DNA of 64,000 bases, from contig DASWJH010000048.1 of assembly GCA_036397255.1 (NCBI GenBank), positions 4,172 through 68,171 on the forward strand. Reading direction: 5' to 3'. Source of the stretch: Nitrospiria bacterium (GTDB taxonomy: Bacteria > Nitrospirota > Nitrospiria > DASWJH01). Made by a program: the position numbers and the translations under genes. The notes under the pieces are model-generated. The model was not told the origin of the DNA. It searched no databases and was given only the letters and a program-made list of their open reading frames with translations. Shown piece after piece: positions 1,940 to 40,373 of this stretch (position 1 is its first letter; every line of letters begins with the position of its first letter).

Positions 1940-1979
1940 CTAAATAAATAAAAAATCCTTTAATGCTCAAATTGAGCTA
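1940..1979. terminator. candidate weak bidirectional terminator between convergent genes
   Basis: A short hairpin gctca-aat-tgagc sits at 1965-1977 and overlaps the stop codon of the 1977..2780 gene. A T-run (ttttttatttattt) follows about 10 nt later on the minus strand. The stem is only 5 bp, so this is weak. Confidence 0.2.
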
Positions 1980-2780
1980 TAAAAGGCGTTTTCCCATACT
2001 TCGGAATTGTTTAACATCGCTCGATTTAGGAAAGGAAAAATAGGAAGTCTGGGTCTTTTCCGGCTCCTGGAATACAACCCTTCCTTGCTTAATATTTTCC
2101 AATATTTCGATCAGGTAAAGGGCACCTAAAGTTTTAGTCCGTTTGATGAGCATATCAAGCGATTCATGTGGGTTGATCTCAAATTCCCTTTGTAATAAAA
2201 ATTTCCCTCGATCCACCTCCTGATCCATTGTATGGATGGTAATTGCCGAAAATTTTTCGTTATGATACATTGCCCAAAAATTTGGGAGCATTCCTCTATA
2301 TTTTGGAAGTTTCGCATTATGTATATTAATGCACCCCCATTTAGGAACATTCAGTATTGCTTCTTTAAATATTTGGGGGGCAGCAACAGATACAATCACA
2401 TCAACCTTCATATCATTTAATCGTTTTATCATCTCTGAATCGTTAATATTTTTGCAGCGAATAACTTTTATTTTATAATAATTGCAAAGGTGCTCAATAT
2501 TAAAAAACGTTTTAAAGTAGATTTTCCCTAACAATGCTCCCAACATCTTATTTTTTGCGTACCGTAACCCTATCCGAAAAAAGTCAACCGGCCCATAAAA
2601 ACCATACATCTGCTTTATCAATTTGGTGATACTCTTTCCCATTGTTCTACATATAATCAAACCTTGAATTTCATAAAGGTTCTTATAGTTATTGAAAAAA
2701 GTTTCAAAGAATATCCTGATATAAAAAGGATCCTCCTGGGTGACAAAAACGATCTTCATGCTTTCCTCACTGTTTCCCAA
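1977..2780 (-). CDS. formyltransferase-domain protein (Fmt/ArnA-N-like; probably a sugar N-formyltransferase)
   Basis: The block VDVIVSVAAPQIF...INIHNAKLPKYRGMLPNFWAMYHNEKFSAITIHTMDQEVDRG matches the formyltransferase core (the H-x-SLLP-x-x-RG motif, the catalytic His and the downstream Asp). It is the last gene of the EPS locus. Confidence 0.65.
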   Translation of the reverse strand: MGNSEESMKIVFVTQEDPFYIRIFFETFFNNYKNLYEIQGLIICRTMGKSITKLIKQMYGFYGPVDFFRIGLRYAKNKMLGALLGKIYFKTFFNIEHLCNYYKIKVIRCKNINDSEMIKRLNDMKVDVIVSVAAPQIFKEAILNVPKWGCINIHNAKLPKYRGMLPNFWAMYHNEKFSAITIHTMDQEVDRGKFLLQREFEINPHESLDMLIKRTKTLGALYLIEILENIKQGRVVFQEPEKTQTSYFSFPKSSDVKQFRSMGKRLL

Positions 2781-3913
2781 ACACTCTTTTTCTCCCCCTT
2801 TAAAATATTAAAAAGGCCCATTAAACAAGCAATATTCACCACACAAAAATAAAGAGGCATGGAAAGAATCCTAACTTTTCCTCCCTTTTTGTCAATAAAC
2901 CATCCCGCAAGCGCCAATAGATATAAACTGAATTGCATGTAGAAAGTGGTATTGTAAAACCAGGGACCCAATAAAAACCAATTCAAGATAAATAATGCAA
3001 TCATCAAAAGGGGAACCAACCAGCGCAGAACCTTATGTGAGATTAATTGGAACGAAACAAACCCATATTTAAAGGGGTTTAACAAGGCTCGCATATGGAG
3101 AATGCCATTCATCCCCCGAGTAATCACTCTGATTCTCATTTTAAATTCCTCAGAGGACCCCTCCGTTGTCGTCTCAAATGCAATTGCTTCTTTTTCAAAT
3201 GCGATTCGATACCCTTTTTCAAGAATTTTTAAGGGTTCCACCAAATCGCTAATGATATCTCTTTTCAACGGTTCATAAAGATCCCTTCGGACGGAATAAA
3301 TACAACCACAGCAACCCGTTATGGTTTTAATGCGGGTTTGGCAAGATTTAATGAAATTCTCATATTTCCAAAAAAATATAGTTGCTATCCCCATTGCCGA
3401 CCCCTTTTTGGTAATATAATTATACCTCCCGCTGACAGCCCCAATGGTGGGATCCGCATAATTTCGAACAATTTTCCGGATGGCATCTCTTCTATATTCC
3501 GTTGTTGCATCTGAAAAAACAATAATCTCTCCCTTTGCATTTATAACGGCTTGGTTTTGGGTTTCGGTTTTACCAACCCTTCCCTCCACCCGGAGCAATC
3601 TAATATTTTCATACTTCCTACGGTATTCATTTACAATCTGATCGGTTCGGTCCGTTGAACCATCCGAAGCAACTAAAATTTCTATTTTAGAAGGAGGATA
3701 TTCCAAATCTTCTGCGTTTTCGAGTTTTTTGCCAATATCTTTCTCTTCATTATAGGCTGTAATCAAAAGGGTTACCGTGGGTTCATATTTATCATTTTTC
3801 TTAACAGGATTTCGAACAAAAATTGAAAACAGGAAAATTGAGAGTGTATACCCCACATAGACATAAAGGATCAGACCCAAGGTAATCCAAAAAAATAAGG
3901 AAGCCATAATCAT
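2756..3913 (-). CDS. membrane-anchored family-2 glycosyltransferase
   Basis: An N-terminal TM helix is followed by LITAYNEE...VASDGSTDRT...VFSDATT (the DxD region) and C-terminal TM helices. This is a GT2 fold in a synthase-like arrangement. Confidence 0.75.
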   Translation of the reverse strand: MIMASLFFWITLGLILYVYVGYTLSIFLFSIFVRNPVKKNDKYEPTVTLLITAYNEEKDIGKKLENAEDLEYPPSKIEILVASDGSTDRTDQIVNEYRRKYENIRLLRVEGRVGKTETQNQAVINAKGEIIVFSDATTEYRRDAIRKIVRNYADPTIGAVSGRYNYITKKGSAMGIATIFFWKYENFIKSCQTRIKTITGCCGCIYSVRRDLYEPLKRDIISDLVEPLKILEKGYRIAFEKEAIAFETTTEGSSEEFKMRIRVITRGMNGILHMRALLNPFKYGFVSFQLISHKVLRWLVPLLMIALFILNWFLLGPWFYNTTFYMQFSLYLLALAGWFIDKKGGKVRILSMPLYFCVVNIACLMGLFNILKGEKKSVWETVRKA

Positions 3914-3929
3914 ACCCTCTTAAGCTTTT

Positions 3930-4568
3930 TTACAAATCATAAGGGAAAAATTCCGAAAGGTGGGGAAGCATTCTTTGAATAAAATCCCGGTGAAGTGATT
4001 TTTGTTTTTCAAACTCTTCAGGCATGAAATAAAAGGAAGAAATTTTAACTAAAGCAGCATCAGTTCTTTTATTCAATATTGCGTTTAATGCATATTTAAC
4101 TCTCCCTGATCTCTTCCCCACCACACCATAAGAATCAAGGAAAAAAGCATATGAAACCAGTGCAAAGCGATTATTTTTTTTAAAACTTGCCTGGTTAATT
4201 CTTAATGAATGTTTTCCCGAATGGACAATCTTTGTGGAGGTGTGGACCAAACCCCAATTTTTATCCGGTAAAATGTTTTGTCCCCCAAATATATTATTCC
4301 CATGTCTAAATTTACCCCAATAACCAATATATAAAGATAATATATTTTTTTTCTCGTCTTGAAAATTTCTTAAAAAGATTACACCATCAGGAATGATTAC
4401 AATATTTTCAAAGGTTTCTTCTTGACCAGTCTGGGTCCAATTTCCCAATGCTTCAGGAAAAAGTCCAAAACTTGCCCTCAACGGGGTTCCCTCTCCCAAA
4501 GGGAAAAATTCAACATAAAGGGCAGTGATGCCTAATAAAAAAATTACAATAATCCACTTTTGAATCAC
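3930..4568 (-). CDS. EpsI-family exosortase-associated protein (periplasmic, with a single N-terminal TM helix)
   Basis: It lies immediately downstream of the exosortase. It has an N-terminal TM helix (IIVIFLLGITALYV) and is about 200 aa, the size and position expected of EpsI. The similarity is judged by context and size, not by a strong motif. Confidence 0.45.
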   Translation of the reverse strand: MIQKWIIVIFLLGITALYVEFFPLGEGTPLRASFGLFPEALGNWTQTGQEETFENIVIIPDGVIFLRNFQDEKKNILSLYIGYWGKFRHGNNIFGGQNILPDKNWGLVHTSTKIVHSGKHSLRINQASFKKNNRFALVSYAFFLDSYGVVGKRSGRVKYALNAILNKRTDAALVKISSFYFMPEEFEKQKSLHRDFIQRMLPHLSEFFPYDL

Positions 4569-4598
4569 AAAAGTTACCTTTAAAAATTTTTCTATTGT

Positions 4599-5483
4599 TT
4601 ACTGGCCCTTTAAGGAAAATTTAAGCGGGACGTAAAAAAAACATTTTTTTATTACCCGATCAATGGCGAAGAAACCAACAATGCCAATTAAAATAACAAA
4701 AGTCCACGCATAGCCATGAAACCCATCTGCGATATCATTATTAAAATAATAGGAAATAAACCCGATGGCCGAAATTCTTAGAATATTTGCGGCGATCGCA
4801 AGCGGTATTGCCAAAAGAATAAAAAGGGTTCGAATATAATTGGAATGGTACCCTAAATAAGCAAACACCGAACTAATGGCAAGAAAGGATATGATGGTCT
4901 GCATTCCACTACATGCTTCTACGATTTCTAAAGAAAGTGATGATAGATGAATCACATGTCCTTCTAAAAAAACTGGGATCTGGGCCAAACCTAATATGAA
5001 ACTTGAACTTCCCGCAATAAAAAACTTTAGTTGATTTGCGACAAAATAATTAATGAAATATGGAATGGGTAACATAAAAACCAAATAGGAAATGGGGAAT
5101 AAAAGTGCCTTTAACATGGTAAATCCATAAAGTACGTAAATTATTCCTAATAGAATTGTTACCATCCCAATTCCTTCGATAAAAATCTGGTCAAGAAATT
5201 TTCCCCATATAAAAAGCGACAAACCACTAAAAAGATACAAAACGCTAAGGGAACTTGTTTTATTATTTTCATATTCATAAAGAAGGGAAGCAATTTTTTC
5301 CCGATGGATCCAAATTAGGTATACCGATACGATTGGAATCAAAAATCCATGAGAGAACTCCGGATCACTTCTCCACTCAAAAAATAGTGCCCCCCCCAGA
5401 GGATAAAATAACCAAATTAAAAGAATTGTCATTAACAAGTAGAACAAAACCTTAAATTTATTAAGATTAATGGAGTTACTCAT
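4599..5483 (-). CDS. exosortase (Xrt family transpeptidase)
   Basis: It is a polytopic membrane protein containing EIVEACSGMQTII (the conserved exosortase ACSG active-site Cys block) and a downstream Arg (NILRIS). Its start overlaps the upstream GT4 stop (ATGA). Confidence 0.75.
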   Translation of the reverse strand: MSNSINLNKFKVLFYLLMTILLIWLFYPLGGALFFEWRSDPEFSHGFLIPIVSVYLIWIHREKIASLLYEYENNKTSSLSVLYLFSGLSLFIWGKFLDQIFIEGIGMVTILLGIIYVLYGFTMLKALLFPISYLVFMLPIPYFINYFVANQLKFFIAGSSSFILGLAQIPVFLEGHVIHLSSLSLEIVEACSGMQTIISFLAISSVFAYLGYHSNYIRTLFILLAIPLAIAANILRISAIGFISYYFNNDIADGFHGYAWTFVILIGIVGFFAIDRVIKKCFFYVPLKFSLKGQ

Positions 5484-6727
5484 AATTTTTTAGAAAAAAA
5501 CCTATCTAAAGTTTTAATAAGTTTCTCTGAATCAACTTTCCAATTATATTTCATTTCCACAGCTTTTTTCCCGTTTATTCCATAACCAACTCTGGACTCG
5601 TCCCGCAGTAATTGAATTATTTTTTCACCTAAATCATTACTATCACCGTTTTTAAAAATAACGCCGCACTTTTCTTCTTGAACGATCCTTTGAAGGGGGA
5701 GGCAATCGGAAACCACAACGGGCTTGCCCATGGCCATGTAATCAAAAATTTTATTTGGAATCGTAGTATCCGTATGCTCACTCCGTGAATGAGGGATCGT
5801 GCAAACACTGCTTTTTTTAATTATATTTGGAATGAGAGAAAAATTAACCCACCCTTCAAAATGAACAGAATCCTTTATTCCCATTTTTTCCGCACAGTTT
5901 ATTAAATTCCGTTTCTCTGTTCCATCCCCAACAACCCGCAAAATCGCATTTGGAAACTCTTTTAATACTTTAAGCATCGCCTGGATCAAAATCTTTACCC
6001 CTCGATGTTTATCAATTTTCCCAACATACAAAATGCATGGGTTCAATTCGTCTCCATTAAAATTATCTCCTTGAATCTTTTCTTTTTTATCCAGAAACAA
6101 ATTTAAATTAGGTGTGTTCAAAATGCATGAAATCCTATCCTCCGAAAAACCCATTTTAATCAATCGAGTCTTTTGTTCTTCCGCAACAACAAGAATATGT
6201 TTCATGAACTTTAAAGCAAAATGTTCATAGGTTCGGGGTAACCACCCATTCAAAAAGAGAAAAGGCTTATATCTGGGGTTACCATAGGCAATCAGAGCCG
6301 CGGGATAATTCTCAGCCATGTCTAGGACAACAGGCTTTTTTAAAAATTTACCCAGGACCCCCACCATAAGGGCCAAGGGAAGATCTCGAACAACGATCAA
6401 ATCCACCGAATAGTGGGTAAGGACTTTATAGGTTTTGTAAATCCAAAAAGGGTTAAAAAATATAGGATAGGACAACCATCTAAACCTTACATCCAAAAAT
6501 TCTGACAATTTAAAATAGACACGGTGGATTTCCCCATAGGAAAAAGACTCCATTAACGGCAAATTCTTTTTCCCTCGAGAGATCACATGGATCTCATGGC
6601 CCCGCTCACCTAACCGGTTTATCATCTTTTCCAAACGAATATCCCAAGGATATATACAATGCCAAAGGAATGCTATAATTTCAAATTGTCCGTTATTTCT
6701 CTTCTCTTGATTTTTGAGAGGACTCAT
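5480..6727 (-). CDS. glycosyltransferase family 4 (GT-B, retaining)
   Basis: The C-terminal block EHTDTTIPNKIFDYMAMGKPVVVSD is the GT4 E-x7-E donor-binding motif. Confidence 0.8.
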   Translation of the reverse strand: MSPLKNQEKRNNGQFEIIAFLWHCIYPWDIRLEKMINRLGERGHEIHVISRGKKNLPLMESFSYGEIHRVYFKLSEFLDVRFRWLSYPIFFNPFWIYKTYKVLTHYSVDLIVVRDLPLALMVGVLGKFLKKPVVLDMAENYPAALIAYGNPRYKPFLFLNGWLPRTYEHFALKFMKHILVVAEEQKTRLIKMGFSEDRISCILNTPNLNLFLDKKEKIQGDNFNGDELNPCILYVGKIDKHRGVKILIQAMLKVLKEFPNAILRVVGDGTEKRNLINCAEKMGIKDSVHFEGWVNFSLIPNIIKKSSVCTIPHSRSEHTDTTIPNKIFDYMAMGKPVVVSDCLPLQRIVQEEKCGVIFKNGDSNDLGEKIIQLLRDESRVGYGINGKKAVEMKYNWKVDSEKLIKTLDRFFSKKL

Positions 6728-7493
6728 CTTTGGTCAATTTCCATAGTCTATGATAAAGGTCATTTCCAATAAGACTCTTTATGGCATTTTTCATTGTGTA
6801 CTCTACTTCCTTTTTTATAATATACTTTTTTTCCAATTTGACCATTTTCTCAAAAGTAGGAAAATCGGTATTTTCTGAAACGATTAATCTCCCTAAAATA
6901 GGAAATTTGCCGCTTCTCCATTTTACCCTTGGCAAAGATACACATACTGCTTTGTAACCCATCTTTTTGGAAATTTCCAAAACAGATTCAGTGAACCGGC
7001 CACCGGGACAGGAAAAAAAAGATACCTTCTTCCCGGTAATATCTTGTAAAATATCTTTTGATTTTTCCAGTTCTTCGTAGATCTGATCTGGTGCTAAATC
7101 ATTCAGAAATCTGTGGGTATGAGTATGAGATTGAATAGACATTTGATTCTTTGCCATTTCCTTAATATGGTTTTCTTCGAGTAAATCCTTTCCTTTCCCA
7201 ATGAATTGTGTGGCAATAAAAAATTCCCCAGAAAACCCATAGCTTTTTAATAAAGGAAGAGCTAAGGTATAGTTACTCAGTTGTGTATCATCAAAAGTGA
7301 TGACTATTTTTTTTTCAGGACCAAATCCATCCTTTTTTATAATTTGGAATAATTCTTCTAAAAGAATCGTTTGATACCCGCTAGATTTTAAAAAATCAAG
7401 TTGCCTTAAAAATTTATCCTTTGAAACGGCATAAGGGTGTACACTAATTTCTTTTTGCACAATCTCATGATACATTAAAATAGGAATAATCAT
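6693..7493 (-). CDS. polysaccharide deacetylase (NodB homology domain)
   Basis: It contains ILMYHEI...ITFDDTQLSNYTLALPLLKSYGFSGEFFI, which includes the NodB TFDD metal-binding motif. Confidence 0.75.
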   Translation of the reverse strand: MIIPILMYHEIVQKEISVHPYAVSKDKFLRQLDFLKSSGYQTILLEELFQIIKKDGFGPEKKIVITFDDTQLSNYTLALPLLKSYGFSGEFFIATQFIGKGKDLLEENHIKEMAKNQMSIQSHTHTHRFLNDLAPDQIYEELEKSKDILQDITGKKVSFFSCPGGRFTESVLEISKKMGYKAVCVSLPRVKWRSGKFPILGRLIVSENTDFPTFEKMVKLEKKYIIKKEVEYTMKNAIKSLIGNDLYHRLWKLTKDESSQKSREEK

Positions 7494-7525
7494 TTAGTTT
7501 TCAATCATAAATTGATAATCTTAAT

Positions 7526-8653
7526 TTATTTAGCTAATTTTTCTTCTAACATAAGAGCATCAGCGAAAAACTTTGTCGCCCAATTCGGAAATGCAAATCG
7601 CTGGTACCCGCCCCAGATCGGGTGGGATCCTGCAATCGCCCCTCTTATTCTGGGATCTTGAATGGACAATAGCTGTCGCTCCTTTAGAAAATTATTAATT
7701 TTCCTTGCCCCAACAAAAAATTTTTTATCTCCAATTATTTCAAAAAGCCGGAGGAAAATAATGGATATTTGGGCATTCCCTGTTAAACAAGAGAATTTAG
7801 ACCCAGTTTCCCAGTTAGGGCCAAAAGTGGCCGAAAAAGAACCGTCAGAATTCATGGAATGAAGTAATTGGGAAGCCGACGTAATAGCGCGATTTATATA
7901 TTGTTCTTCCTTTAAAATTTCTCCTGTTTCAAGAATCCCTCGTATCGTATAGGCAATGGTATGGGTATAGGGATAGGTATGGGTGGCCAGTTTGAAACCG
8001 GTTTTATCAAACCATCCATTGGTATTTTGATTTTTAAGGACCCATTCAATATTCTTCTGCGAAGCCTCCTTGTAAACTGGTTTTTTTGTTAGGATAAACA
8101 TTTGAGCCAATGCCCAAGCTACGCGGGAATAATATGAGTGGGGAATATTGTTATATGTATAAGTACTCCAGGACCCATCCTTATCCTGGACACTGACTAA
8201 CCAATCACTTGCTTTCTGTGCTGCTTCAAGATATTTTTCATCCTTCCCATGGGTATATAATCGGATTAATCCAAAAACAATCTGCCCGGTATCAAAAACA
8301 AATTTCCCTAACCGGGACCCCCAAGGCCCTCCAAAAAATGAACCATCCTTGTTTTGGATGGAAATCTCCCAATCCCCCATTCTAAAGGCTCGATCCAAAT
8401 ATTCATTGGAACCCGTCAACCGGGCATAATTTAAAAACGTCGGAATGATATACCCTGTTGTTTCCGGGTATGATGGAGACCATCCAAAAATTAAAGAATA
8501 CCTTAGGGAAACGCCATCGTCATCGGTGGCATCTTGAGCAGTGGACAACCAATCGATCGCAGCCTTAATTCGGCCAAAATTAAATAAATTTCTCTCGGTT
8601 TTTCTAATACCTTGTTCAATTAAAAAACATGTTATAAGGCCTTTAAGATTCAT
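7526..8653 (-). CDS. hypothetical protein with repeated aromatic-rich DGS[FW] motifs (possibly an alpha/alpha-toroid or prenyltransferase-like repeat fold)
   Basis: It contains NKDGSFFGGPWG, DKDGSWSTYTY and SDGSFSATFGPNWE repeats reminiscent of toroid repeat enzymes. I cannot place it in a named family from sequence alone. Confidence 0.3.
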   Translation of the reverse strand: MNLKGLITCFLIEQGIRKTERNLFNFGRIKAAIDWLSTAQDATDDDGVSLRYSLIFGWSPSYPETTGYIIPTFLNYARLTGSNEYLDRAFRMGDWEISIQNKDGSFFGGPWGSRLGKFVFDTGQIVFGLIRLYTHGKDEKYLEAAQKASDWLVSVQDKDGSWSTYTYNNIPHSYYSRVAWALAQMFILTKKPVYKEASQKNIEWVLKNQNTNGWFDKTGFKLATHTYPYTHTIAYTIRGILETGEILKEEQYINRAITSASQLLHSMNSDGSFSATFGPNWETGSKFSCLTGNAQISIIFLRLFEIIGDKKFFVGARKINNFLKERQLLSIQDPRIRGAIAGSHPIWGGYQRFAFPNWATKFFADALMLEEKLAK

Positions 8654-8686
8654 TTTTTGTTTTTGGTTTAAATGAGGGAATTTGGG

Positions 8687-9892: not shown

Positions 9893-9900
9893 ATAGTAAA

Positions 9901-32280: not shown

Positions 32281-32295
32281 CTTTTTTCAAAAACT

Positions 32296-32961: not shown

Positions 32962-33033
32962 CTGAAAAAATTTAATTTCCGTTCATCATGGAATTTACTG
33001 ACCTCATTATAAAGGAGCATATTTTCTGATTTC

Positions 33034-34995
33034 TTAAATTTCAGCCTCAATCTTTTCATGGTTTCGAGCTGATTGAATCAGCTCTTCCGAGAGGTCCTGG
33101 ACGGAGGTATGTTCGATAAAAATCCGGTACCATACCTCACTATTCAGGAGAAGCCAAAGTCGATTTCCATGGTCTTTATTTCCAATCAGATGTTCCCCCA
33201 AAAAGCTATTAATCGAAGGTTGGTGGAATATACCGTTCTTGGCCATATGTGAATTTTCAAGGAATTTTTTGAACAAGAATGGATATTCATTTTTTAACAT
33301 GTAGGGAAGCGCTGAGGAAAAACCTTGCTTAGGGCGATTCAGAAGGGGCTCTGGCAAATACCGTTTAGCGAGCTGCATCTGGATATATCTAAGAGAGCGT
33401 CCCCTCACCTTAAGTCTTATGGGAAGCCTTGCAGCGAATTCTGCAATTTCGTGATCCATAAAAGGACTTCTTGCCTCCAGTCCATGCGCCATTGTCATTC
33501 GATCCAAAATCATCACCGAGTGGTCTGGAAGCCGAATTTGGCTATCTGCAGAAAGCATCCGATCTAGAATATCAGAGTCTGGGGCCCGATCAAAAGCCTC
33601 TCTGATGGCAAAACCGGGGTCAAATGGAAAGTTATTGATCTCTTTTACCGAACCATAAAGGTCATTGAGCTGCACGCGATCAAAATAAAAATAACCAAGG
33701 CTTTTCGCATAGCGTGTCCCACCTTCCAAAAAGGATAGTTTGTGCAACCATTTAAGCTGGTGCCCAAGGCTTTTATACCAATTTCCATCGGAAATGTATG
33801 GGAGGAGTTTTCCAATTATATTTTTTCGAATCATACTGGGAATTTGAGCATAATAACCGGCAAATCGATTTCCATAATAACGGTCATAACCTCCAAAAAG
33901 TTCATCCCCCCCATCGCCCCCAAGAACCACCTTCACATGCTCTCGCGCCATTTTAGCGATTAGGTCCGTACACACAGATAAAGAATCAGATGGCTCATCT
34001 AATTGCCATACCAGGCGTGGAAGACTTTTCACCAGGGAAGGAATCATAACTTTTTCATGATGTCGAGTGCCATACTGATTGGCAACCAATTTGGCAAGAG
34101 GGGCCTCGTCAAACGAACCAAAAGGAAGACTGACCGAAAATGTTTCAATAGGTTCGGAGGTCACATGTTTCATCACCATCGCAACAATTAGGGTTGAGTC
34201 TAATCCCCCGCTTAAAAAAGCCCCTACAGGTACATCGCTCACCATGTGATATTTTAAACACTTGATCATTCTTTCCTCAAGATCGTCCACTAAATCGTCA
34301 TCAGAACCCGATAATTTAGGTTCATACTCTAAATCCCAGTAGCGTTCGATCTTTAATCCAGTTTCCTCTTCAAAGGTTAGGAAGTGAGCTGGGGGAAGTT
34401 TTCGAATGGAACGAAACATAGAACGGGGGGGAGCTATAATACGTAAACTAAGATACTGGTCAAGGGAGCCAAGATCCATTTCGGCCAAAGAACGATCGAC
34501 CGCGAGAAGAGCCTTTATTTCTGAGGCAAAGAGAAATTCCTCTTCCCGTTGGACATAAAAAAAGGGTTTTTGGCCCAATCTATCACGGGCAGCAAATAAT
34601 CTCTTTGATTGATTATCCCAAATTACAAATGCAAACATCCCTCGAAGATATTTAACACATCGCTCCCCATACTCTTCATATAAATGCAAAATAGTTTCGG
34701 TATCAGTATCCGTATGAAATCGATGGCCCCTTCCAATCAGATCCGATCGAAGATCACGATAGTTATAGATTTCGCCATTAAAGACAATCCATTTTGTTCG
34801 GTCTTCATTCGAAATAGGTTGTTTTCCGGTATGGAGGTCAATAATGCTTAATCGACGGTGTCCGAGACCTACTTCGTTATTCATATAAAAACCTATATCA
34901 TCTGGTCCCCGGTGGGAGAGGGATTGGGCCATTATTTTAATTTCGCTCTGATTGACCTCACCTTGAAAGCTCACCTTTCCACAAATCCCGCACAT
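33034..34995 (-). CDS. asparagine synthase (glutamine-hydrolysing) family amidotransferase, EPS-locus type
   Basis: The N-terminus MCGICGKVSF is the Ntn Cys glutaminase start. SGGLDS is the PP-loop. It is 653 aa. Confidence 0.85.
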   Translation of the reverse strand: MCGICGKVSFQGEVNQSEIKIMAQSLSHRGPDDIGFYMNNEVGLGHRRLSIIDLHTGKQPISNEDRTKWIVFNGEIYNYRDLRSDLIGRGHRFHTDTDTETILHLYEEYGERCVKYLRGMFAFVIWDNQSKRLFAARDRLGQKPFFYVQREEEFLFASEIKALLAVDRSLAEMDLGSLDQYLSLRIIAPPRSMFRSIRKLPPAHFLTFEEETGLKIERYWDLEYEPKLSGSDDDLVDDLEERMIKCLKYHMVSDVPVGAFLSGGLDSTLIVAMVMKHVTSEPIETFSVSLPFGSFDEAPLAKLVANQYGTRHHEKVMIPSLVKSLPRLVWQLDEPSDSLSVCTDLIAKMAREHVKVVLGGDGGDELFGGYDRYYGNRFAGYYAQIPSMIRKNIIGKLLPYISDGNWYKSLGHQLKWLHKLSFLEGGTRYAKSLGYFYFDRVQLNDLYGSVKEINNFPFDPGFAIREAFDRAPDSDILDRMLSADSQIRLPDHSVMILDRMTMAHGLEARSPFMDHEIAEFAARLPIRLKVRGRSLRYIQMQLAKRYLPEPLLNRPKQGFSSALPYMLKNEYPFLFKKFLENSHMAKNGIFHQPSINSFLGEHLIGNKDHGNRLWLLLNSEVWYRIFIEHTSVQDLSEELIQSARNHEKIEAEI

Positions 34996-35591
34996 CAGTT
35001 ACCACCTCCTTTTACAGCAACTCTTTTCTCAAATTTTGTATAGCAGGATTTCAAAAAATGAGACAAAAAGATTAAGGAGAAAATCACAACGAGTTCAATC
35101 CCAATGGCAAGTAGGTTGTAGGGTTGAAGGATCGTTGCAATCCATTCATGGGTTCCCACAGAAGTAGAATGGGCATGACTGACGCCTAATAAAATTTGGA
35201 ATGGAGCCTGATAAGTCTCTCCACTGATAGGCCAAAATAGGGGAATTCCGTAAGGCGGCCGTTTATCCGGACCAAACATGTCTAAAAGGAGATGCGAAGC
35301 GTATGCAAATGATAGTATCCATCCGGATGGGATGATCAACTTTGTCTTTTTAAGATTGATAACCATTGATATCAAGAATCCAGAGGTTAAAGCGAAGATC
35401 AGGCTATGCGAAATCCCCTGATGGTAAAGCGCTGGTTTCCCTTGAATAATCCCAGGAATGAAATCCAAATCGGGAGCAACTGCAAGGAAAAGGCATAGGG
35501 ATAAAAATAAGGGTCTGTTAAAAAACTGGTTTCCAGATGCTATCTTATAAATGAGGTAACCTGCCAAGGCATGTCCAATAGGCGTTGCCAT
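34995..35591 (-). CDS. membrane-bound metal-dependent hydrolase-like protein (YdjM/DUF457 type)
   Basis: It is a small 198-aa polytopic protein with an N-terminal MATPIGHALAGY and several His residues in helices (HQGISHS, SHLLLD). Confidence 0.4.
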   Translation of the reverse strand: MATPIGHALAGYLIYKIASGNQFFNRPLFLSLCLFLAVAPDLDFIPGIIQGKPALYHQGISHSLIFALTSGFLISMVINLKKTKLIIPSGWILSFAYASHLLLDMFGPDKRPPYGIPLFWPISGETYQAPFQILLGVSHAHSTSVGTHEWIATILQPYNLLAIGIELVVIFSLIFLSHFLKSCYTKFEKRVAVKGGGN

Positions 35592-35650
35592 TTTTCACCC
35601 ATTATAAAACATCGAAAAAGTTCAAACCTTTGGATAAGGTTCTTCCAAAT

Positions 35651-37432
35651 TCAATTTGCTAAGGTTTTTCGTTCAGCCTCACGCAGTTGGACCCTTTTTT
35701 CAGCTGAGGGATTCATTACAGTAAATGATCCGATTGCCAAAACATCCAGATGCCCAATTTTGAAGGCACGAATCGCATCTTCCGGTGTACACACAATGGG
35801 CTCTTCGTGGATATTAAAACTCGTATTTACCACGCTGGATTTTCCGGTAAGCTCCTTGAAATTTTGGATAATACGATAGTAACTTGGATTATCGGTTTGG
35901 CTAACAAGTTGGGGCCTCGCCGTACCGTCTACATGTACCACACCTGGGCATTGGTTTTTCATTTCCTCGGTACATTGAAAGGTAATCGTCATAAAACGGG
36001 CGGTTTCTCGGGCCCCATCCAGGTTGTGGTAAAATTTATCTGCATCCTCTGCAAGGGTTGACGGCGCAAAGGGCATAAACTCGGTTCGTTTTAGGTTTTT
36101 ATTAAGCCAATCATTAACTGAATGATCATCAGGTTTATATAAAATCGATCGATTCCCGAGCGCTCGAGGGCCGTATTCCATCCTACCGTTTACTCTCGCG
36201 ACTACAAATCCCTTACTTATCAGCCTTGCAATTTCGGGTTCCACTTCCTGGTGAAATGAATATGATACCCCTGCTTTTTCCAATGCCTCTTTTATCCGAT
36301 CTTGGGAAAACTCAGGTCCAAGATATACATGATCCATACACCTTGTATTTATTTTTGAAGGGTCGGAGGAATTGATATAATTTAGAGCCAAAGCGGCACC
36401 CACGGCAAGGCCTTCGTCTGACATTCCAGGGTGAATAAATACGGAACGAACACCTGGCAATTCATGGATCCTTTGATTAATTTTTACATTGGCAAACAAA
36501 CCTCCAGCAAGTGCCACATCATGTTTTCCCGTTTTTTCCCTCCAATACTGGATATATTGGGTGGCCACCTCTTCTGCAACATTCTGGATCGTTGCCGACA
36601 AATCCTCCCTTTTAAAATCCTTGGGTAAAGCGCCTAACAATTTCTGAACGGCTGCAGTAAAAAAGGCATTTCCGATATTGGTAATGGTGCCATTATTGTA
36701 CTGAATAAATTGATACAATATATCCTTATAGGAATCCTTTCCGTAAGCGGCAAGACCGGTGATTTTTCCTTCGTGTTTGCCCGCTTTAAATCCACATATA
36801 TGGGTTACATATCCATAATAACTACCCAATGAATCAAAACCGGCCACCTTGTGCAAAATTTGCCATTTCCCATTGGTAACAGAATACACATGAGAAGAAT
36901 TACCATCCCCAGATCCATCCATGGTAACCACCAAGCCATCATTAAATCCACTGGAGTAATAGGCAGAACACGCATGGGAAAAGTGATGCGAAATGAATTT
37001 CACAGGACATTCAATTCCAAATTCTTCCTTTAAAACCCGGCGGATACTTATGCGGCGTTGAGCATAAACCGGTTTCCTAAGATTATAATAAAGACTCTCT
37101 AAAATAGGGACCTTTAACCTGTAATGGCTGAGCCTGGAACCAACAGAGAAAAATACGTTTTTGATGAGCCCACGGTCTACCTCAAATAAACCCCCATCAA
37201 AATCCACATATTTATTCAGAAACGTTCCCCATTGTGAGGCCACAGCGACTTGGTCCATTTCATCGGGTCGAACATTTGCAAGTCGGAAAACTTCGGCAAT
37301 TGATTTTCGGGGAAATCCCATAACCATTTTTTTTCGAACCAGTCTTTCTTCATTCACGGCTGCCAATACCTTGCCATCCTCCAAAATGGCAGCACCGCTA
37401 ATAATATGATCTGTGATTCCTAATATTTTCAC
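35651..37432 (-). CDS. carbamoyltransferase (NodU/CmcH family)
   Basis: The N-terminus MKILGITDHIISGAAILEDGKVLAAVNEERLVRKK is the hallmark start of the NodU family, and its 593-aa length is typical. Confidence 0.8.
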   Translation of the reverse strand: MKILGITDHIISGAAILEDGKVLAAVNEERLVRKKMVMGFPRKSIAEVFRLANVRPDEMDQVAVASQWGTFLNKYVDFDGGLFEVDRGLIKNVFFSVGSRLSHYRLKVPILESLYYNLRKPVYAQRRISIRRVLKEEFGIECPVKFISHHFSHACSAYYSSGFNDGLVVTMDGSGDGNSSHVYSVTNGKWQILHKVAGFDSLGSYYGYVTHICGFKAGKHEGKITGLAAYGKDSYKDILYQFIQYNNGTITNIGNAFFTAAVQKLLGALPKDFKREDLSATIQNVAEEVATQYIQYWREKTGKHDVALAGGLFANVKINQRIHELPGVRSVFIHPGMSDEGLAVGAALALNYINSSDPSKINTRCMDHVYLGPEFSQDRIKEALEKAGVSYSFHQEVEPEIARLISKGFVVARVNGRMEYGPRALGNRSILYKPDDHSVNDWLNKNLKRTEFMPFAPSTLAEDADKFYHNLDGARETARFMTITFQCTEEMKNQCPGVVHVDGTARPQLVSQTDNPSYYRIIQNFKELTGKSSVVNTSFNIHEEPIVCTPEDAIRAFKIGHLDVLAIGSFTVMNPSAEKRVQLREAERKTLAN

Positions 37433-37435
37433 TTC

Positions 37436-38605
37436 TCACCTCCGGCCATCAATGACTTCATAAAAAATGCTTTCATATTGCTCTGCACAGCGGTCGATGA
37501 ATAGTTCCTCAACCCGCCGTGAATTATCCTGCCCCATTTTCTTCCGTAGAGACTGATTCTGAACCAGAAAAAGGCATCGGGCTTCAAATTCCTTTAAATT
37601 ATTGAGCGGAATCAGATAACCATTTTTTTGATCTTTCAGGAAATCCGTCTGGCCACCGTAATCATAACAAATAACAGGAATACCACAAGCCATGGCCTCC
37701 AAGAAAACCATCCCAAATCCCTCATGCTGGCTTGTCGATACGTAAATATCCGACATTTGAAGAATTCGAAACTTTTCGGATTCACTAACTTGACCTAAAA
37801 ATTGGACTTTATTGTTGATACCAATCTGTTGGGAATCTCTGCGAAGTTGTTCTTCTTGAGGGCCGGTACCAATGACCAATAAACGGATTTTTAAATCCCT
37901 AAACGATTTCATTAAAATTAGTAGTTGGTGAATGGCTTTTCGGGCAATCAATCTTCCGACTGTAACGAGCAACACTTCATCCTCTGGAATACCGTAAGAC
38001 TTCCGATCCCCGGCCTCAATTTTAGGCCGCTTAATTCCCAACGGTATACGTATAGCATCTAACTGAGGAAGATAATACTGTTTTAAATTATTAAGGGTAT
38101 TTGTTGATTGGCCTATTACCCGGTCGGCTCTCCTAATAAGCCGTCGGATCCAAATGCGAAGAACGGGATGCCTGTGGGGTGAAGTGAATTTACTTGGGTC
38201 ATAAAGATCCCCCCCGTGCAAAGAGAGCACATTGGGAATCCCCGCCCTGCGTGAAAGCCACTGACCGACGGGGCCGCTTGGAAGAGCAAAGTGTGTATTT
38301 ATGACATCAAAAGATTCGTGTTTAAGCAAATGCCCTCCTTCACGTATTGCCATAAGCAAATACATCAACATCGAAATCAAATTAGCGGTTGCCTGGTTTC
38401 TCCTAAAATAAACCGGAACCCGAACAACACGAACATTATTCTCCACCCCCATAGGGGAAAGGCCGGGCCCACTAGAAGTCAGAACGGTAACCCGGTGACG
38501 CTTAGCTAATTCCTCCGCCAAAAGAGCATTGATCACTCCACCACCCCCCCCTAACGGGGGATACTCATAGTTACAAAAAAGGATTTTCAGAGATTCAGGG
38601 GCCAT
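37436..38605 (-). CDS. glycosyltransferase family 4
   Basis: TSQHEGFGMVFLEAMACGIPVICYDYGG (E-x7-E). Confidence 0.8.
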   Translation of the reverse strand: MAPESLKILFCNYEYPPLGGGGGVINALLAEELAKRHRVTVLTSSGPGLSPMGVENNVRVVRVPVYFRRNQATANLISMLMYLLMAIREGGHLLKHESFDVINTHFALPSGPVGQWLSRRAGIPNVLSLHGGDLYDPSKFTSPHRHPVLRIWIRRLIRRADRVIGQSTNTLNNLKQYYLPQLDAIRIPLGIKRPKIEAGDRKSYGIPEDEVLLVTVGRLIARKAIHQLLILMKSFRDLKIRLLVIGTGPQEEQLRRDSQQIGINNKVQFLGQVSESEKFRILQMSDIYVSTSQHEGFGMVFLEAMACGIPVICYDYGGQTDFLKDQKNGYLIPLNNLKEFEARCLFLVQNQSLRKKMGQDNSRRVEELFIDRCAEQYESIFYEVIDGRR

Positions 38606-38611
38606 TTAGAT

Positions 38612-39346
38612 TTAACCATCACCTTTTTTTGCCACAGCCCCAATTTTTTTGGTCCAAATTCGATTGGCTTTTCCATACAGCATAAAACTAAAGGTAAAAA
38701 ACAAATCATACATTTTACTTAAAACTAAGAGGACATAATTCAGTGGATTCGAATAAAAAACATAAAGATTAAGAGGTATCACCCGAATATCTTTAAAATC
38801 GGCATAGGATATTACCTGCCTCATCGTATATTCGGTGAAAGTATTATAGTGATCGAAATTTTGAGCAAGTGCTTCAGCACCCGTAACAGGGTTGGCACCA
38901 TTTAAGGAATGAACGATTAGGGTCCCATTTTCGCGGAGGGCATTCCGGCAGAGGGGAAGGAAATTCAATATTTCCTCCTTGGTGAGATGATTTAGTTCCT
39001 GTTCACAAAATATTACGTCAAAACTACCTTTATTTTTCTGAAGGAATTCAAAGGCACGTTCCACTCGGCAATTTAAACCCTTTTGAACAGCATGTTTAAT
39101 TTTTTCCGGTGCAGAATCGATTCCCATCACATTTTCATATCCATGAATAGTCAACATATTCACGAAATAACCCGGACCACAGCTAATGACGAGAATATTG
39201 GCCTTTCGATCATGGGGGAAAATTTTTAGATAATTATTCTTATAAAATTTATAAAACGAGGAATACCCTTTTTCGATATTTTCCGGTCCTTCCCAAAAAG
39301 AATCAAATGGCTCTATTTTTGCAGAAAGTGATTGTGATGATAACAT
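38612..39346 (-). CDS. class I SAM-dependent methyltransferase
   Basis: ILVISCGPGYFVNML is motif I, and FDVIFCEQELNHL is the motif II region. Confidence 0.6.
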   Translation of the reverse strand: MLSSQSLSAKIEPFDSFWEGPENIEKGYSSFYKFYKNNYLKIFPHDRKANILVISCGPGYFVNMLTIHGYENVMGIDSAPEKIKHAVQKGLNCRVERAFEFLQKNKGSFDVIFCEQELNHLTKEEILNFLPLCRNALRENGTLIVHSLNGANPVTGAEALAQNFDHYNTFTEYTMRQVISYADFKDIRVIPLNLYVFYSNPLNYVLLVLSKMYDLFFTFSFMLYGKANRIWTKKIGAVAKKGDG

Positions 39347-39383
39347 TTAGTTTTTTCTCCTGTTTGAGTATTTCAAATAACTC

Positions 39384-40373
39384 TTAAAGATCCCCCCGTT
39401 CGCGATACCAATTCGAGGTTTGCCGGGCACCATTCTCGAACGTTACCGTCGGGGAATACCCTAACTCAGAACGCATAAGGTCTTGCTTAAAGAAAAAACT
39501 TTTCCGGAAAAAATCCATTCTTCGGCGATGGAGTGGTGGTTGAATTCCCAAAGGTTTAAGGACCGTTTCCATTACTGCAGCAACCATTAAAAAAGGCATT
39601 AAAGGAACCCGCCATTTAGGTAACGAACACTCTAAAACCTGCGCAATCGTATTGACCATCTGCTGGGTTGTGACCGCCTCATTCCCAGAGAGGACATAGG
39701 TTTTCCCCAATACCTTTTCGGATCTGGCGGCAACCAGAAATGCCCCTATTAAGTCATCAATGTAAATTGGATGGTGAAGATTCTCGCCATTTCCAATCAC
39801 AAAAAAAACCCGTTTTTTAATTGCACGAAAAAGCTTTAACAGTCTCCGATCTCCCGGGCCATAGGTTTCAGAAATTCGTAATATCACGACCGGTAATTTT
39901 TCCTTAAAACGCAAAACAACCTTTTCTGCTTCGGCCTTCGTTATTCCATAAATATTGTCTGGACTTAGTTTCGACCCCTCATGAATGGCACCCTCCAATG
40001 CCGATCCATAAACACCGATTGTGCTCCCGTGGATAAATCGTTTGACCCCAGAGGAAACAGAAGCCTCTAACATGTTCTGGGTTCCCGAGACATTAATATC
40101 CCAAAAACGTTGATTTTGAATATTCGCTTCATGTTGAGCTGCAGCAAGGTGAAAAACCAAATCGGTGCCTTTTAGATGCTTCTCAAGATTACCTCTATCG
40201 GTAACAGAGACATCCACCACCCTAACGCCTTTGGATTGAAGCCAACGGGCGTTTTCTAACTCGGTTGGATTATTGGTCTGGCCCAACACCACAACCGAAT
40301 TCCCCTTTTCATGACAATGGAAGGCAAGCCTCGACCCGATAAAACCGGTTCCTCCCGTAATTAAAAGCTGCAT
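39384..40373 (-). CDS. NAD-dependent epimerase/dehydratase (extended SDR)
   Basis: MQLLITGGTGFIGSRL is the Rossmann GxxGxxG, and the protein has a YxxxK region. The ORF track extends to 40487, but the internal Met (MQLLITGG) at 40371-40373 is the likely start, because it removes the overlap with the upstream gene. Confidence 0.7.
   Translation of the reverse strand: MQLLITGGTGFIGSRLAFHCHEKGNSVVVLGQTNNPTELENARWLQSKGVRVVDVSVTDRGNLEKHLKGTDLVFHLAAAQHEANIQNQRFWDINVSGTQNMLEASVSSGVKRFIHGSTIGVYGSALEGAIHEGSKLSPDNIYGITKAEAEKVVLRFKEKLPVVILRISETYGPGDRRLLKLFRAIKKRVFFVIGNGENLHHPIYIDDLIGAFLVAARSEKVLGKTYVLSGNEAVTTQQMVNTIAQVLECSLPKWRVPLMPFLMVAAVMETVLKPLGIQPPLHRRRMDFFRKSFFFKQDLMRSELGYSPTVTFENGARQTSNWYRERGDL

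Follow-up and report, generated by a model that had tools for sequence, protein, structure and literature searches.

The question raised by this 64,000-nucleotide stretch of contig DASWJH010000048.1 from an uncultured Nitrospiria bacterium (the whole stretch is called the window here) is what is made by its long cluster of glycosyltransferases and polymer-modifying enzymes, and whether all of these enzymes act on the same product. The sequence-only reading of the window had listed ten modifying enzymes, described their density as exceptional and predicted a single, heavily modified polysaccharide; that interpretation is partly supported by the present analysis. We consider it probable that the genes encode a Wzx/Wzy-dependent, exosortase-associated extracellular polysaccharide system built from three modules, which lie at 58204 to 42118 (module 1), 42099 to 29653 (module 2) and 29631 to 1977 (module 3).

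All ten of the open reading frames listed earlier lie on the minus strand where they had been placed, and each exceeds the gathering score of its Pfam family, so that none of the family calls failed in profile searches. Inspection of the translations by eye showed that catalytic motifs are kept in the formyltransferase, the AsnB-type amidotransferase, the kinase, the CE4 enzymes and the carbamoyltransferase. The cluster is longer than the span to 40373 first assigned to it: the third deacetylase (42118..43011) already lies past that end, and the array actually reaches 58204. It comprises 48 genes, all on the minus strand, in a single operon-like arrangement at 1977..58204 (56 kb) that is 98% coding, has no gap larger than 182 nucleotides and contains no strand switch. 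Ten of these genes encode glycosyltransferases, while 19 of the 48 encode modifying or auxiliary enzymes other than glycosyltransferases, a count that rises to 24 once precursor and sulfate-activation genes are included.

Module 1 holds regulators, export genes, a priming transferase, WecB, a dehydrogenase, a CysD/CysN-like pair and a TIGR03006 deacetylase:

56771..58204, minus strand: sigma-54 response-regulator activator, the first gene of the array (Sigma54_activat, 229.5 bits)
56106..56624, minus strand: stand-alone degenerate GGDEF protein of 172 amino acids, with GGASF replacing GG[DE]EF (GGDEF, 74.1 bits)
[quoted passage not shown]
49646..51040, minus strand: priming polyprenyl-phosphate sugar-phosphate transferase of the XrtA/PEP-CTERM type (TIGR03013, 506.7 bits; cutoff 393.35)
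48253..49584, minus strand: nucleoside-diphosphate-sugar dehydrogenase (TIGR03026 exceeded, 455.7 bits)
47679..48203, minus strand: RfaH/UpxY-like NusG paralog (NusG, 58.9 bits)
46755..47546, minus strand: CysD (NF003587, 302.6 bits; cutoff 195)
45591..46754, minus strand: CysN-like GTPase of 387 amino acids with no adenosine 5'-phosphosulfate (APS) kinase domain (TIGR02034, 266.8 bits; cutoff 336)
44214..45569, minus strand: soluble enzyme of the Type I phosphodiesterase/nucleotide pyrophosphatase (NPP) family (Phosphodiest, 151.4 bits)
43002..44180, minus strand: UDP-GlcNAc 2-epimerase, WecB (TIGR00236, 491.8 bits; cutoff 210)
42118..43011, minus strand: XrtA-system polysaccharide deacetylase, CE4 plus DUF3473 (TIGR03006, 396.8 bits; cutoff 276.2; DUF3473, 166.3 bits; Polysacc_deac_1, 91.5 bits)

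The exosortase and the genes for polymer assembly are part of module 3:

13331..14860, minus strand: Wzx-type flippase (Polysacc_synt_3, 73.4 bits)
11991..13334, minus strand: Wzy_C polymerase/ligase-like protein (Wzy_C, 73.3 bits)
4599..5483, minus strand: exosortase (Exosortase_EpsH, 184 bits; generic TIGR02602, 179.9 bits; cutoff 105.6)
3930..4568, minus strand: EpsI (DUF3485/EpsI, 81 bits; TIGR02914, 62.5 bits; cutoff 42.8)

The Wzx/Wzy pathway set is complete (Bac_transf, Polysacc_synt_3, Wzy_C, Wzz/GNVR, AAA_31 and Poly_export), and hallmark models of XrtA-type loci are exceeded by the priming transferase (TIGR03013), the TIGR03006 deacetylase, EpsI and, with the generic model, the exosortase. 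WecB together with the dehydrogenase, which among equivalogs comes closest to UDP-ManNAc dehydrogenases (under cutoff, at 303 and 266 bits), should supply N-acetylmannosamine (ManNAc) and its uronic acid, ManNAcA. The relationship to the XrtA set itself is less close. The exosortase falls under all curated subtype cutoffs (XrtA TIGR03109, 159.2 against 208; XrtW, 179 against 425; also XrtD, XrtV and XrtB) and may represent an unmodelled subtype. The tyrosine autokinase region exceeds TIGR01007, and the XrtA-specific models for the tyrosine kinase (TIGR03018, 141 against 231), the chain-length protein (TIGR03007, 265 against 279), the export protein (TIGR03027, 151 against 180) and the outer-membrane protein (TIGR03016, 62 against 91) are the best matches yet below cutoff, as is PEP_resp_reg TIGR02915 for the sigma-54 activator (323 against 503). 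Because XrtA-specific cutoffs are missed, the tandem GNAT transferase of module 3 is not a TIGR03019 protein and no PEP-CTERM tails were found, the locus is treated, on these profile comparisons, as a variant of exosortase polysaccharide systems that lies outside the XrtA set.

This assignment is accompanied by conserved gene order. Approximately ten relatives of the exosortase were found at 53-76% identity, and all three of the contigs examined (L077, 76%; L078, 60%; L079, 53%) share a terminal block of Wzy, Thr-type enzyme, CE4 deacetylase, exosortase, EpsI, membrane GT2 and formyltransferase, with small insertions and deletions. Homologues of the FemX-like transferase of module 3 at 39-50% identity occur in L007, L008 (a Methylomirabilales metagenome-assembled genome) and L108, where the shared order is two ArnC-like glycosyltransferases, kinase, CE4 deacetylase, GNAT transferase, (ATP-grasp/Wzb), GT4, Thr-type enzyme and PMT_2; Wzx and Wzy come after PMT_2 in L007 and L008. 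The order of module 3 is kept in L007/L079, L008, L108, L077 and L078. Besides the exosortase, EpsI, Wzx and Wzy, this module holds the sulfotransferase, the ArnC-like glycosyltransferases, the kinase, CE4 deacetylases, the FemX-fold transferase, the ATP-grasp/Wzb fusion, the Thr-type enzymes, the GT-C enzyme, the membrane GT2 and the formyltransferase:

28480..29631, minus strand: sulfotransferase of the 3'-phosphoadenosine 5'-phosphosulfate (PAPS) type (Sulfotransfer_3, 123.5 bits)
27316..28479, minus strand: GT4 glycosyltransferase (Glycos_transf_1, 89 bits)
26119..27252, minus strand: membrane protein with LamG and VanZ domains (Laminin_G_3, 76.9 bits; VanZ, 50.3 bits)
24108..26159, minus strand: two tandem ArnC/GtrB-type polyprenyl-phosphate glycosyltransferases, GT2 with C-terminal transmembrane segments (best NCBIfam match ArnC PRK10714; full length, 115.7 and 192.3 bits; cutoff 529)
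22991..24133, minus strand: APH-fold small-molecule kinase (APH, 32.8 bits; cutoff 23.2)
21930..22955, minus strand: CE4 deacetylase "b" (Polysacc_deac_1, 75.5 bits)
20856..21929, minus strand: tandem-GNAT transferase of FemX/FemA fold, PF13480 (Acetyltransf_6, 93.8 bits)
19088..20851, minus strand: ATP-grasp ligase fused to a Wzb-type low-molecular-weight phosphotyrosine phosphatase (LMWPc, 87.3 bits; ATPgrasp_Ter, 32.6 bits)
17919..19079, minus strand: GT4 glycosyltransferase (Glycos_transf_1, 116 bits)
16525..17922, minus strand: second Thr-type alkaline-phosphatase-superfamily enzyme, soluble (Sulfatase, 153.8 bits; Phosphodiest, 67 bits)
14884..16521, minus strand: GT-C glycosyltransferase (PMT_2, ArnT-like fold family) with about nine transmembrane segments (PMT_2, 55.5 bits)
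11230..11970, minus strand: class I S-adenosylmethionine (SAM) methyltransferase 1 (Methyltransf_11, 48.4 bits), with no equivalog match
9901..11130, minus strand: alkaline-phosphatase-superfamily enzyme, soluble, with a Thr nucleophile (Sulfatase, 110.5 bits)
8687..9892, minus strand: GT4 glycosyltransferase (Glycos_transf_1, 145.7 bits; best NCBIfam match stp2, 164 bits; cutoff 409)
7526..8653, minus strand: alpha/alpha-toroid protein (weak matches: SQHop_cyclase_C, 44 bits; C5-epim_C, 31 bits; Ulvan_lyase_N)
6693..7493, minus strand: CE4 polysaccharide deacetylase "a", without signal peptide or transmembrane segment (Polysacc_deac_1, 102.2 bits; TFDD, HTHTH)
5480..6727, minus strand: GT4 glycosyltransferase (Glycos_transf_1, 96.6 bits)
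2756..3913, minus strand: membrane GT2, PgaC/NodC-like, with about three transmembrane segments (Glycos_transf_2, 86.4 bits)
1977..2780, minus strand: single-domain formyltransferase without the C-terminal domain of Fmt (Formyl_trans_N, 80.6 bits; cutoff 26.1)

The GT-C enzyme is kept in L007, L008 and L108, and deacetylase "a" in L077-79. The toroid protein also has weak matches in the PDB, and its activity is uncertain from these similarities (lyase, epimerase or hydrolase-like). The ATP-grasp/Wzb fusion is shared with L007, and the two parts are separate genes in L009. In L108 (1745-5991), genes for the small and large subunits of carbamoyl-phosphate synthase lie directly upstream of the cassette that runs from the ArnC-like pair to PMT_2.

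Module 2 is an eight-gene block (FAD enzyme, SDR, methyltransferase, GT4, carbamoyltransferase, YdjM, AsnB and flippase-like protein) with two further genes inserted in the window:

40396..42099, minus strand: FAD enzyme resembling glycerol-3-phosphate dehydrogenase (DAO, 140.6 bits; DAO_C, 85.4 bits; glycerol-3-phosphate dehydrogenase equivalog, 242 bits; cutoff 360)
39384..40487, minus strand: short-chain dehydrogenase/reductase (SDR) enzyme of the epimerase/dehydratase family (Epimerase, 132.6 bits)
38612..39346, minus strand: class I SAM methyltransferase 2 (Methyltransf_25, 44.6 bits)
37436..38605, minus strand: GT4 glycosyltransferase, kept in module 2 loci (Glycos_transf_1, 148.4 bits)
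35651..37432, minus strand: NodU/CmcH-family carbamoyltransferase (Carbam_trans_N, 133.4 bits; Carbam_trans_C, 201.6 bits)
34995..35591, minus strand: YdjM-family membrane protein (YdjM, 73.6 bits)
33034..34995, minus strand: AsnB-type glutamine amidotransferase (Asn_synthase, 264.4 bits; GATase_7, 166.6 bits)
32296..32961, minus strand: 221-amino-acid protein with a Tat-like SRRIFM signal (by eye), directly upstream of the GMC gene
30676..32280, minus strand: GMC FAD oxidoreductase (GMC_oxred_C, 81.5 bits)
29653..30633, minus strand: flippase-like membrane protein, PF03706, the family of the MprF transmembrane domain (LPG_synthase_TM, 109.6 bits; TIGR00374, 73.3 bits; cutoff 43.2)

The block is kept at 44-72% identity on at least nine metagenome contigs, with orthologues of methyltransferase 2 at 55-72% and of the AsnB-type enzyme at 61-70% identity. 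Relatives of the carbamoyltransferase at 60-75% identity occur at 28 loci in JGI metagenomes; the enzyme carries the HHxxH metal site (SHHFSH) and scores 104.7 bits against the NodU equivalog (cutoff 1000). Cys2 and SGGLDS motifs are present in the AsnB-type enzyme, which exceeds the generic asparagine synthase model TIGR01536 (467 bits) and falls below that of the XrtA amidotransferase TIGR03108 (519.2 against 816.9). From this gene content we infer that module 2 makes a carbamoylated, methylated uronamide-type residue. The open reading frame of the SDR enzyme overlaps the upstream gene by 92 nucleotides, its Rossmann motif begins at residue 44, and its true start is probably Met39. The GMC oxidoreductase and the 221-amino-acid protein are missing from the other module 2 loci and constitute a window-specific insert. 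The small protein had no Pfam match even at E<=10, and its assignment as a Tat-exported small subunit of the GMC dehydrogenase is based on the SRRIFM motif and position alone; together, the two proteins resemble a sugar dehydrogenase of the periplasm made of two subunits.

These comparisons also bear on how unusual the locus is. The window has 22 tailoring and auxiliary genes; across 101 comparison loci of at most 21 kb, limited to flanks of +/-10 kb, no locus contained homologues of more than six of them, and relatives with five to six such homologues per 21 kb or less have a density per kb similar to that of the window. The array is dense, as had been claimed, but a description as exceptional goes beyond these comparisons. 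Since relatives match the window per kb, it appears to be rich mainly through the joining of three rich modules, each of which recurs elsewhere. The locus is a rich variant of a known exosortase polysaccharide system rather than a new kind of system.

A modular origin leads directly to the strongest alternative, namely that the locus is a composite in which modules 2 and 3 are merely co-located with the polysaccharide genes and decorate other acceptors, such as lipopolysaccharide, a glycolipid or an undecaprenyl-phosphate-linked monosaccharide destined for lipid A or core. At least nine module 2 loci contain flippase-like, ArnC-like and multi-transmembrane proteins and have no homologue of Wzx, Wzy, a polysaccharide co-polymerase (chain-length protein), OPX or other export protein or exosortase within 10 kb, the ArnC-like GT2s, CE4 and GT-C enzymes mirror the 4-amino-4-deoxy-L-arabinose pathway of lipid A (PMC12690121), and the GC content per gene of the array spans 0.32 to 0.46. 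However, module 3 lies in the same order beside Wzx, Wzy and exosortase in L077, L078 and L007/L079, and the array runs without strand switches or long gaps. In addition, the comparison loci end at +/-10 kb, and export genes may sit just beyond. Because the block occurs without export or exosortase genes within 10 kb, the acceptor of module 2 need not be the array polysaccharide and may be another molecule, but as an account of the whole locus we regard the composite as possible though unlikely.

If the genes instead serve one exosortase-associated polysaccharide system, as we prefer, the following course is proposed. Repeat units would be assembled on undecaprenyl phosphate. Signal peptides and transmembrane segments are lacking from all of the tailoring enzymes, and for this reason tailoring is expected to take place in the cytoplasm, with nucleotide-linked or undecaprenyl-linked intermediates as its substrates. 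There the CE4 enzymes would strip N-acetyl groups, and the exposed amines would be re-acylated with an aminoacyl group by the FemX-like enzyme, possibly with formyl and possibly through ATP-grasp ligation. The AsnB-type enzyme would amidate the uronic carboxylate, while hydroxyls would receive carbamoyl, methyl, sulfate and phosphate groups. Taken together, the ArnC-like GT2s, the GT-C enzyme and the flippase-like protein point to side sugars being added in the periplasm, where the GT-C enzyme would draw on undecaprenyl-phosphate-sugars in the manner of Arn and Gtr systems. Finally, the exosortase would probably couple its protein substrates to an aminoacylated amino-uronic sugar, by analogy with the linking sugar of the Wbp/Vim system (below).

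The transferase proposed to add the aminoacyl group was examined by structure. The tandem GNAT returned nothing in PDB sequence searches, whether the query was a single sequence or a profile, and had no sequence-level match to Pfam FemAB. Its AlphaFold2 model (mean predicted local distance difference test, pLDDT, of 92) gave FemX as the top Foldseek match (E 1e-13, TM-score 0.63-0.66), followed by FemA, Sbb17/Sba18 and the MprF synthase domain; Sbb17/Sba18 are aminoacyl-tRNA-dependent peptide synthases. The protein had been called FemAB-like, which is right at the level of fold, and aminoacyl transfer is its predicted activity. Its gene always adjoins that of deacetylase "b" (L007, L008, L009 and L108). 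All three CE4 enzymes carry the metal and catalytic Asp motifs (TFDD or DVED, with H[ST]xxH). They had been described as paralogs; all belong to CE4 by Pfam, but pairwise identity is 29-34% over approximately 100 amino acids or there is no significant match, and they are distant members of the family rather than recent paralogs. By analogy with sortase systems, the combination of CE4, FemX-like and AsnB-type enzymes suggests the construction of a linking sugar better than that of a free ornament, and at least three of the ten listed decorations are probably protein-anchoring chemistry.

Sulfation is plausible given a sulfotransferase with the ARSGTT (5'-phosphosulfate-binding, 5'-PSB) and RDPRD (3'-phosphate-binding, 3'-PB) motifs and a CysD/CysN-like pair, which together would form an ATP sulfurylase. 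The case is limited, because PAPS is required yet no APS kinase was found in the window. Another uncultured bacterium has a sulfotransferase (L009:4110-5012) in an exosortase-type locus that also contains a TIGR03019 FemAB protein, DegT, AsnB and a DUF3473 deacetylase; because of this second case, sulfotransferases may not be rare in such loci.

Phospho-substituents are likewise plausible from the small-molecule kinase and three alkaline-phosphatase-family enzymes. The listing of the kinase as a kinase-fold phosphotransferase holds: the APH score exceeds its cutoff, the HxDxxxxN (HSDFIPSN) and DFA motifs are present, and, although PDB sequence searches were empty, the predicted structure (pLDDT 79) matches only small-molecule kinases, namely PsiK, the amicoumacin kinase AmiN, methylthioribose (MTR) kinase, APH and choline kinase. 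The family comprises 294 clusters at 50% identity (E<=1e-30) among 1.84 billion representatives. The NPP-family enzyme at 44214..45569 has weak PDB matches to phosphonoacetate hydrolase. Both proteins of the Sulfatase Pfam family were considered as true sulfatases trimming a sulfated polymer, a role rejected because the formylglycine motif is absent, also from the orthologues. At 9901..11130 the motif is RTAVSALAILSG (T-A-V-S-A), with Thr, or Ser in one orthologue, kept and no C/S-x-P-x-R; at 16525..17922, T-P-P-A-H replaces S/C-x-P-x-R in an alignment with choline sulfatase, and the Thr is kept in L007 and L008. With no signal peptide on either protein, they are better described, judging from these motifs, as soluble alkaline-phosphatase-superfamily enzymes acting on phospho-esters.

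The formyl group is a possible substituent. The formyltransferase gene is the last of the array and overlaps that of the upstream membrane GT2 by 25 nucleotides. NCBIfam matches were all below cutoff (Fmt, 99 against 201.5; ArnA, 88 against 777; dTDP-sugar formyltransferase NF005755, 53 against 238), and the best PDB matches are Fmt, sugar N-formyltransferases and the formyltransferase domain of ArnA, a set that does not tell the subfamilies apart. The catalytic Asn-His-Asp triad is represented by INIHN and MDQEVD, and orthologues in L077-79 (68-70% identity) keep N-x-H. The start is probably Met8, as called in L001, which gives 260 amino acids. The GT2, whose best NCBIfam matches are PgaC (84 bits) and the XrtG-associated GT2 (64 bits), has orthologues of 70-83% identity in an unchanged position in L077-79; the pair is always last in the relatives of module 3 and comprises the best-conserved proteins of the terminal block (68-83%). 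A function as methionyl-tRNA formyltransferase (Fmt) was rejected on the missing C-terminal domain and the conserved GT2 partner at the end of a polysaccharide locus. Because the Arn pathway removes the formyl group after transfer to undecaprenyl phosphate, formylation may by analogy be transient here and need not survive in the product.

The chemistry proposed above bears on the earlier prediction in its strict form, in which all ten enzymes modify one polysaccharide and each leaves a permanent substituent (formyl, carbamoyl, methyl, amide/aminoacyl, phosphate, sulfate and free amine). The enzymes clear the profile and motif tests, the array is single, tightly packed and co-directional, and it has one Wzx, one Wzy and one export set. 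Against this, the formyltransferase lacks an aminotransferase partner and is tied to a membrane GT2, with the Arn formyl group being one that is removed, module 2 occurs elsewhere with no genes for polysaccharide export within 10 kb, and the window shows no APS kinase. The phosphatase domain of the ATP-grasp fusion is Wzb-like (best PDB match E. coli Wzb, 66 bits; CTGNVIRS motif) and hence regulatory, and CE4 deacetylation followed by re-acylation leaves no free amines. The one-polymer prediction in this form is rather unlikely.

Less likely again, and put forward tentatively, is a reading in which the cassette of ArnC-like GT2s, kinase, CE4, FemX-fold, Thr-type and GT-C enzymes beside the exosortase is an undescribed lipid-carrier pathway whose product, an aminoacylated and possibly phosphorylated amino sugar, is the exosortase acceptor. 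The amino sugar would be installed on the polysaccharide in the periplasm. If true, Nitrospirota would have a matrix polysaccharide, sulfated and glycosaminoglycan-like, that undergoes tRNA-dependent aminoacylation.

It is also conceivable, although improbable, that several of the decorating enzymes target proteins, through tyrosine sulfation, protein phosphorylation and dephosphorylation, and O-glycosylation of exosortase substrates by the Wzy_C and PMT_2 proteins. The solved sequences nearest to the sulfotransferase are the protein-tyrosine sulfotransferases TPST1/2, together with the CurM sulfotransferase, but the TPST similarity is weak (39 bits), and a dedicated CysD/CysN pair is typical of the sulfation of glycans or small molecules, for example NodPQ. 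PMT_2 is the Pfam family of protein mannosyltransferases, and the Wzy_C protein matches TIGR03097, "putative O-glycosylation ligase, exosortase A-associated", at 69 bits, which is far under the cutoff of 188. Whereas the LMWPc domain is Wzb-like, the kinase fold matches small-molecule kinases only. The last reading, that the density is an annotation artefact of chance open reading frames and degenerate pseudo-enzymes, could draw on the broad families and modest scores (APH, 32.8; methyltransferases, 44-48 bits), but it is effectively refuted by the conservation data and extremely improbable, with all scores above gathering thresholds, catalytic motifs intact, orthologues of 45-80% identity keeping their order in independent metagenomes, and identical copies of window proteins on 14-16 metagenome contigs.

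Several observations weigh against the three-module exosortase system and temper our confidence in it. Every substrate and product is read from family membership and gene context. As noted, the exosortase and most accessory proteins fall under the curated XrtA-system cutoffs; no C-terminal sorting motif cognate to the exosortase was seen, and tails combining PEP, a transmembrane segment and basic residues (PEP-CTERM-like) were found neither in the window nor in its relatives' flanks. The tandem GNAT scores only 14.1 bits against the XrtA FemAB model TIGR03019 (cutoff 260), while L009 has one true member (324.8 bits) alongside two GNAT paralogs of the window type. The AsnB-type gene is part of the portable module 2 and does not adjoin the XrtA deacetylase, and that module recurs apart from exosortase and export homologues. 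No APS kinase was detected among the scanned open reading frames of the window despite the sulfotransferase, and no DegT_DnrJ_EryC1 aminotransferase matched among the Pfam-scanned open reading frames of at least 150 amino acids (three pur genes at the right end were checked against NCBIfam only, not Pfam). Scans for sigma-70 promoters and intrinsic terminators over 44000..59000 gave the same counts as shuffled sequence, and the sigma-54 -24/-12 pattern had 20 matches in the window against 21 expected; at this chance level, the scans give no support for transcription as a single operon.

The remaining features of the window concern regulation and the flanks. A sigma-54-type -24/-12 element, TGGTACAATCCTTGCA, lies at 58284..58299 on the minus strand, 80 nucleotides upstream of the sigma-54 activator gene, and is only a lead. 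The GGASF protein, located between the activator and the export genes, is probably catalytically dead from its motif and is possibly a receptor for cyclic di-GMP (c-di-GMP). The NusG paralog (RfaH, 112 against 144.5; UpxY, 76 against 100) lies in the middle of the array, followed by a 132-nucleotide gap and then cysD, and is a candidate processive antiterminator of a very long operon. No histidine kinase, whether of the PrsK type or another, was found in the window, and an Rfam scan of the entire window returned no families. The array is bordered on one side by purF/purL/purQ and a response-regulator diguanylate cyclase, and on the other by a secreted "choice-of-anchor Q" protein:

58618..59550, plus strand: response-regulator diguanylate cyclase, divergent to the array
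110..1909, plus strand: secreted protein of 599 amino acids, apparently beta-helix-like, with a "choice-of-anchor Q" domain

Just past the edge of the window (L001:13575-18115), this secreted protein is followed by proteins with fn3 and purple-acid-phosphatase-N domains, and the group may be matrix proteins.

Biofilms, both engineered and natural, commonly contain Nitrospirota, and aggregation there is shaped by the polymer of the matrix. Outside cyanobacteria and a few marine bacteria, it would be unusual to find an amino-uronic polymer that is sulfated and carbamoylated. To our knowledge, the attachment target of exosortase substrates is still unknown, and the locus offers a concrete set of genes with which to address it, in which a deacetylase, a FemX-like enzyme and an amidotransferase accompany an exosortase. 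The interest of the locus lies mainly in this handle on the exosortase acceptor and in two uncharacterised, conserved modules. These portable modules recur in several phyla, no experimental characterisation of them was found, and they are targets for annotation and for tools that mine polysaccharide clusters. Literature searches on Nitrospira exosortase loci and on moenomycin enzymes found nothing usable.

Among known systems, the closest are the XrtA/PEP-CTERM loci, first described as exosortase-associated polysaccharide loci by Haft et al. (2006, PMC1569441), with zooglan-type XrtA clusters discussed in the epsSMASH preprint (10.64898/2025.12.21.693542). The window shares with them the exosortase and EpsI, the TIGR03013 transferase, the TIGR03006/DUF3473 deacetylase, an AsnB-type enzyme, a FemAB-fold transferase, the chain-length determinant, tyrosine kinase, OPX protein and outer-membrane barrel, a sigma-54 regulator and many GT4 enzymes. 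It differs in having the other PF13480 tandem-GNAT family in place of the TIGR03019 FemAB, in lacking the PrsK histidine kinase and PEP-CTERM proteins, and in the addition of sulfation, carbamoylation, formylation and Arn-like modules.

For the proposed linking sugar, the relevant comparison is with the Wbp/Vim system, a pathway defined by experiment, in which VimE (CE4), VimA (which matches TIGR03019) and WbpS (AsnB-like, TIGR03108 family) act on an N-acetyl-hexosaminuronic acid and build a 2-N-aminoacyl hexosaminuronic acid or its amide (Veith et al. 2020, PMC7468200). The type IX secretion sortase PorU couples protein C-termini to the aminoacyl-uronamide, and the same has been proposed for exosortase systems (PMC7468200). 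The triad of CE4, FemAB-type and AsnB-type enzymes with a sortase-type enzyme nearby is common to both loci, and the window has WecB and the UDP-ManNAc-dehydrogenase-like enzyme; however, the WbpA/B/E/D 2,3-diamino pathway is missing, the transferase belongs to another subfamily and an exosortase replaces PorU. In the Caulobacter holdfast, HfsK is a tandem GNAT, structurally closest to FemX, that is proposed to acylate amines exposed by the HfsH deacetylase and so to tune the cohesion of the adhesin (Sprecher et al. 2017, PMC5362036). A cytoplasmic CE4 enzyme, a soluble FemX-like tandem GNAT and nearby regulators linked to c-di-GMP are shared with the window, whereas the holdfast locus has no exosortase and no kinase, ATP-grasp or GT-C partners.

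The side-sugar pathway recalls lipid A modification and lipid-carrier side-branch systems, among them the Arn pathway with its ArnA formyltransferase, ArnC, ArnD, ArnE/F and ArnT. ArnD belongs to the CE4 family and ArnT is a GT-C enzyme, while Thr-nucleophile alkaline-phosphatase-family enzymes form the LtaS/GacH family, of which GacH acts with streptococcal GacI/K/L as a lipid-carrier side-branch system. ArnC transfers formylated aminoarabinose to undecaprenyl phosphate (PMC12690121). The ArnC-like GT2s, flippase-like protein and formyltransferase are common to the Arn pathway and the window, but the window lacks the ArnB aminotransferase and the ArnA decarboxylase domain, its scores are below the equivalog cutoffs, and the acceptor is presumably a polysaccharide and not lipid A. 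GacH and LtaS are anchored in the membrane, and their catalytic domain faces outward; the alkaline-phosphatase-family enzymes of the window, by contrast, are soluble.

In its logic of decoration, the locus also resembles the Nod-factor set of NodC, NodB, NodA, NodS, NodU, NodH/NoeE and NodPQ, with a GT2 enzyme, CE4 de-N-acetylation, N-acylation, methylation, O-carbamoylation and sulfation with CysD/CysN-type activation. The product of the window is, however, a Wzx/Wzy polymer, NodA has no homologue here, the APS-kinase domain that NodQ carries is missing from the CysN-like protein, and the NCBIfam matches are weak and far below equivalog cutoffs. The synechan (xss) cluster of Synechocystis (Maeda et al. 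2021, PMC8205485) likewise combines Wzx/Wzy-type and sulfotransferase genes, but it comes from another phylum and has no exosortase or carbamoyl, formyl or aminoacyl modules. In that paper, sulfated exopolysaccharides are called a cyanobacterial speciality among bacteria (PMC8205485), whereas the sulfotransferases of the window and of L009 sit in the polysaccharide loci of other uncultured bacteria.

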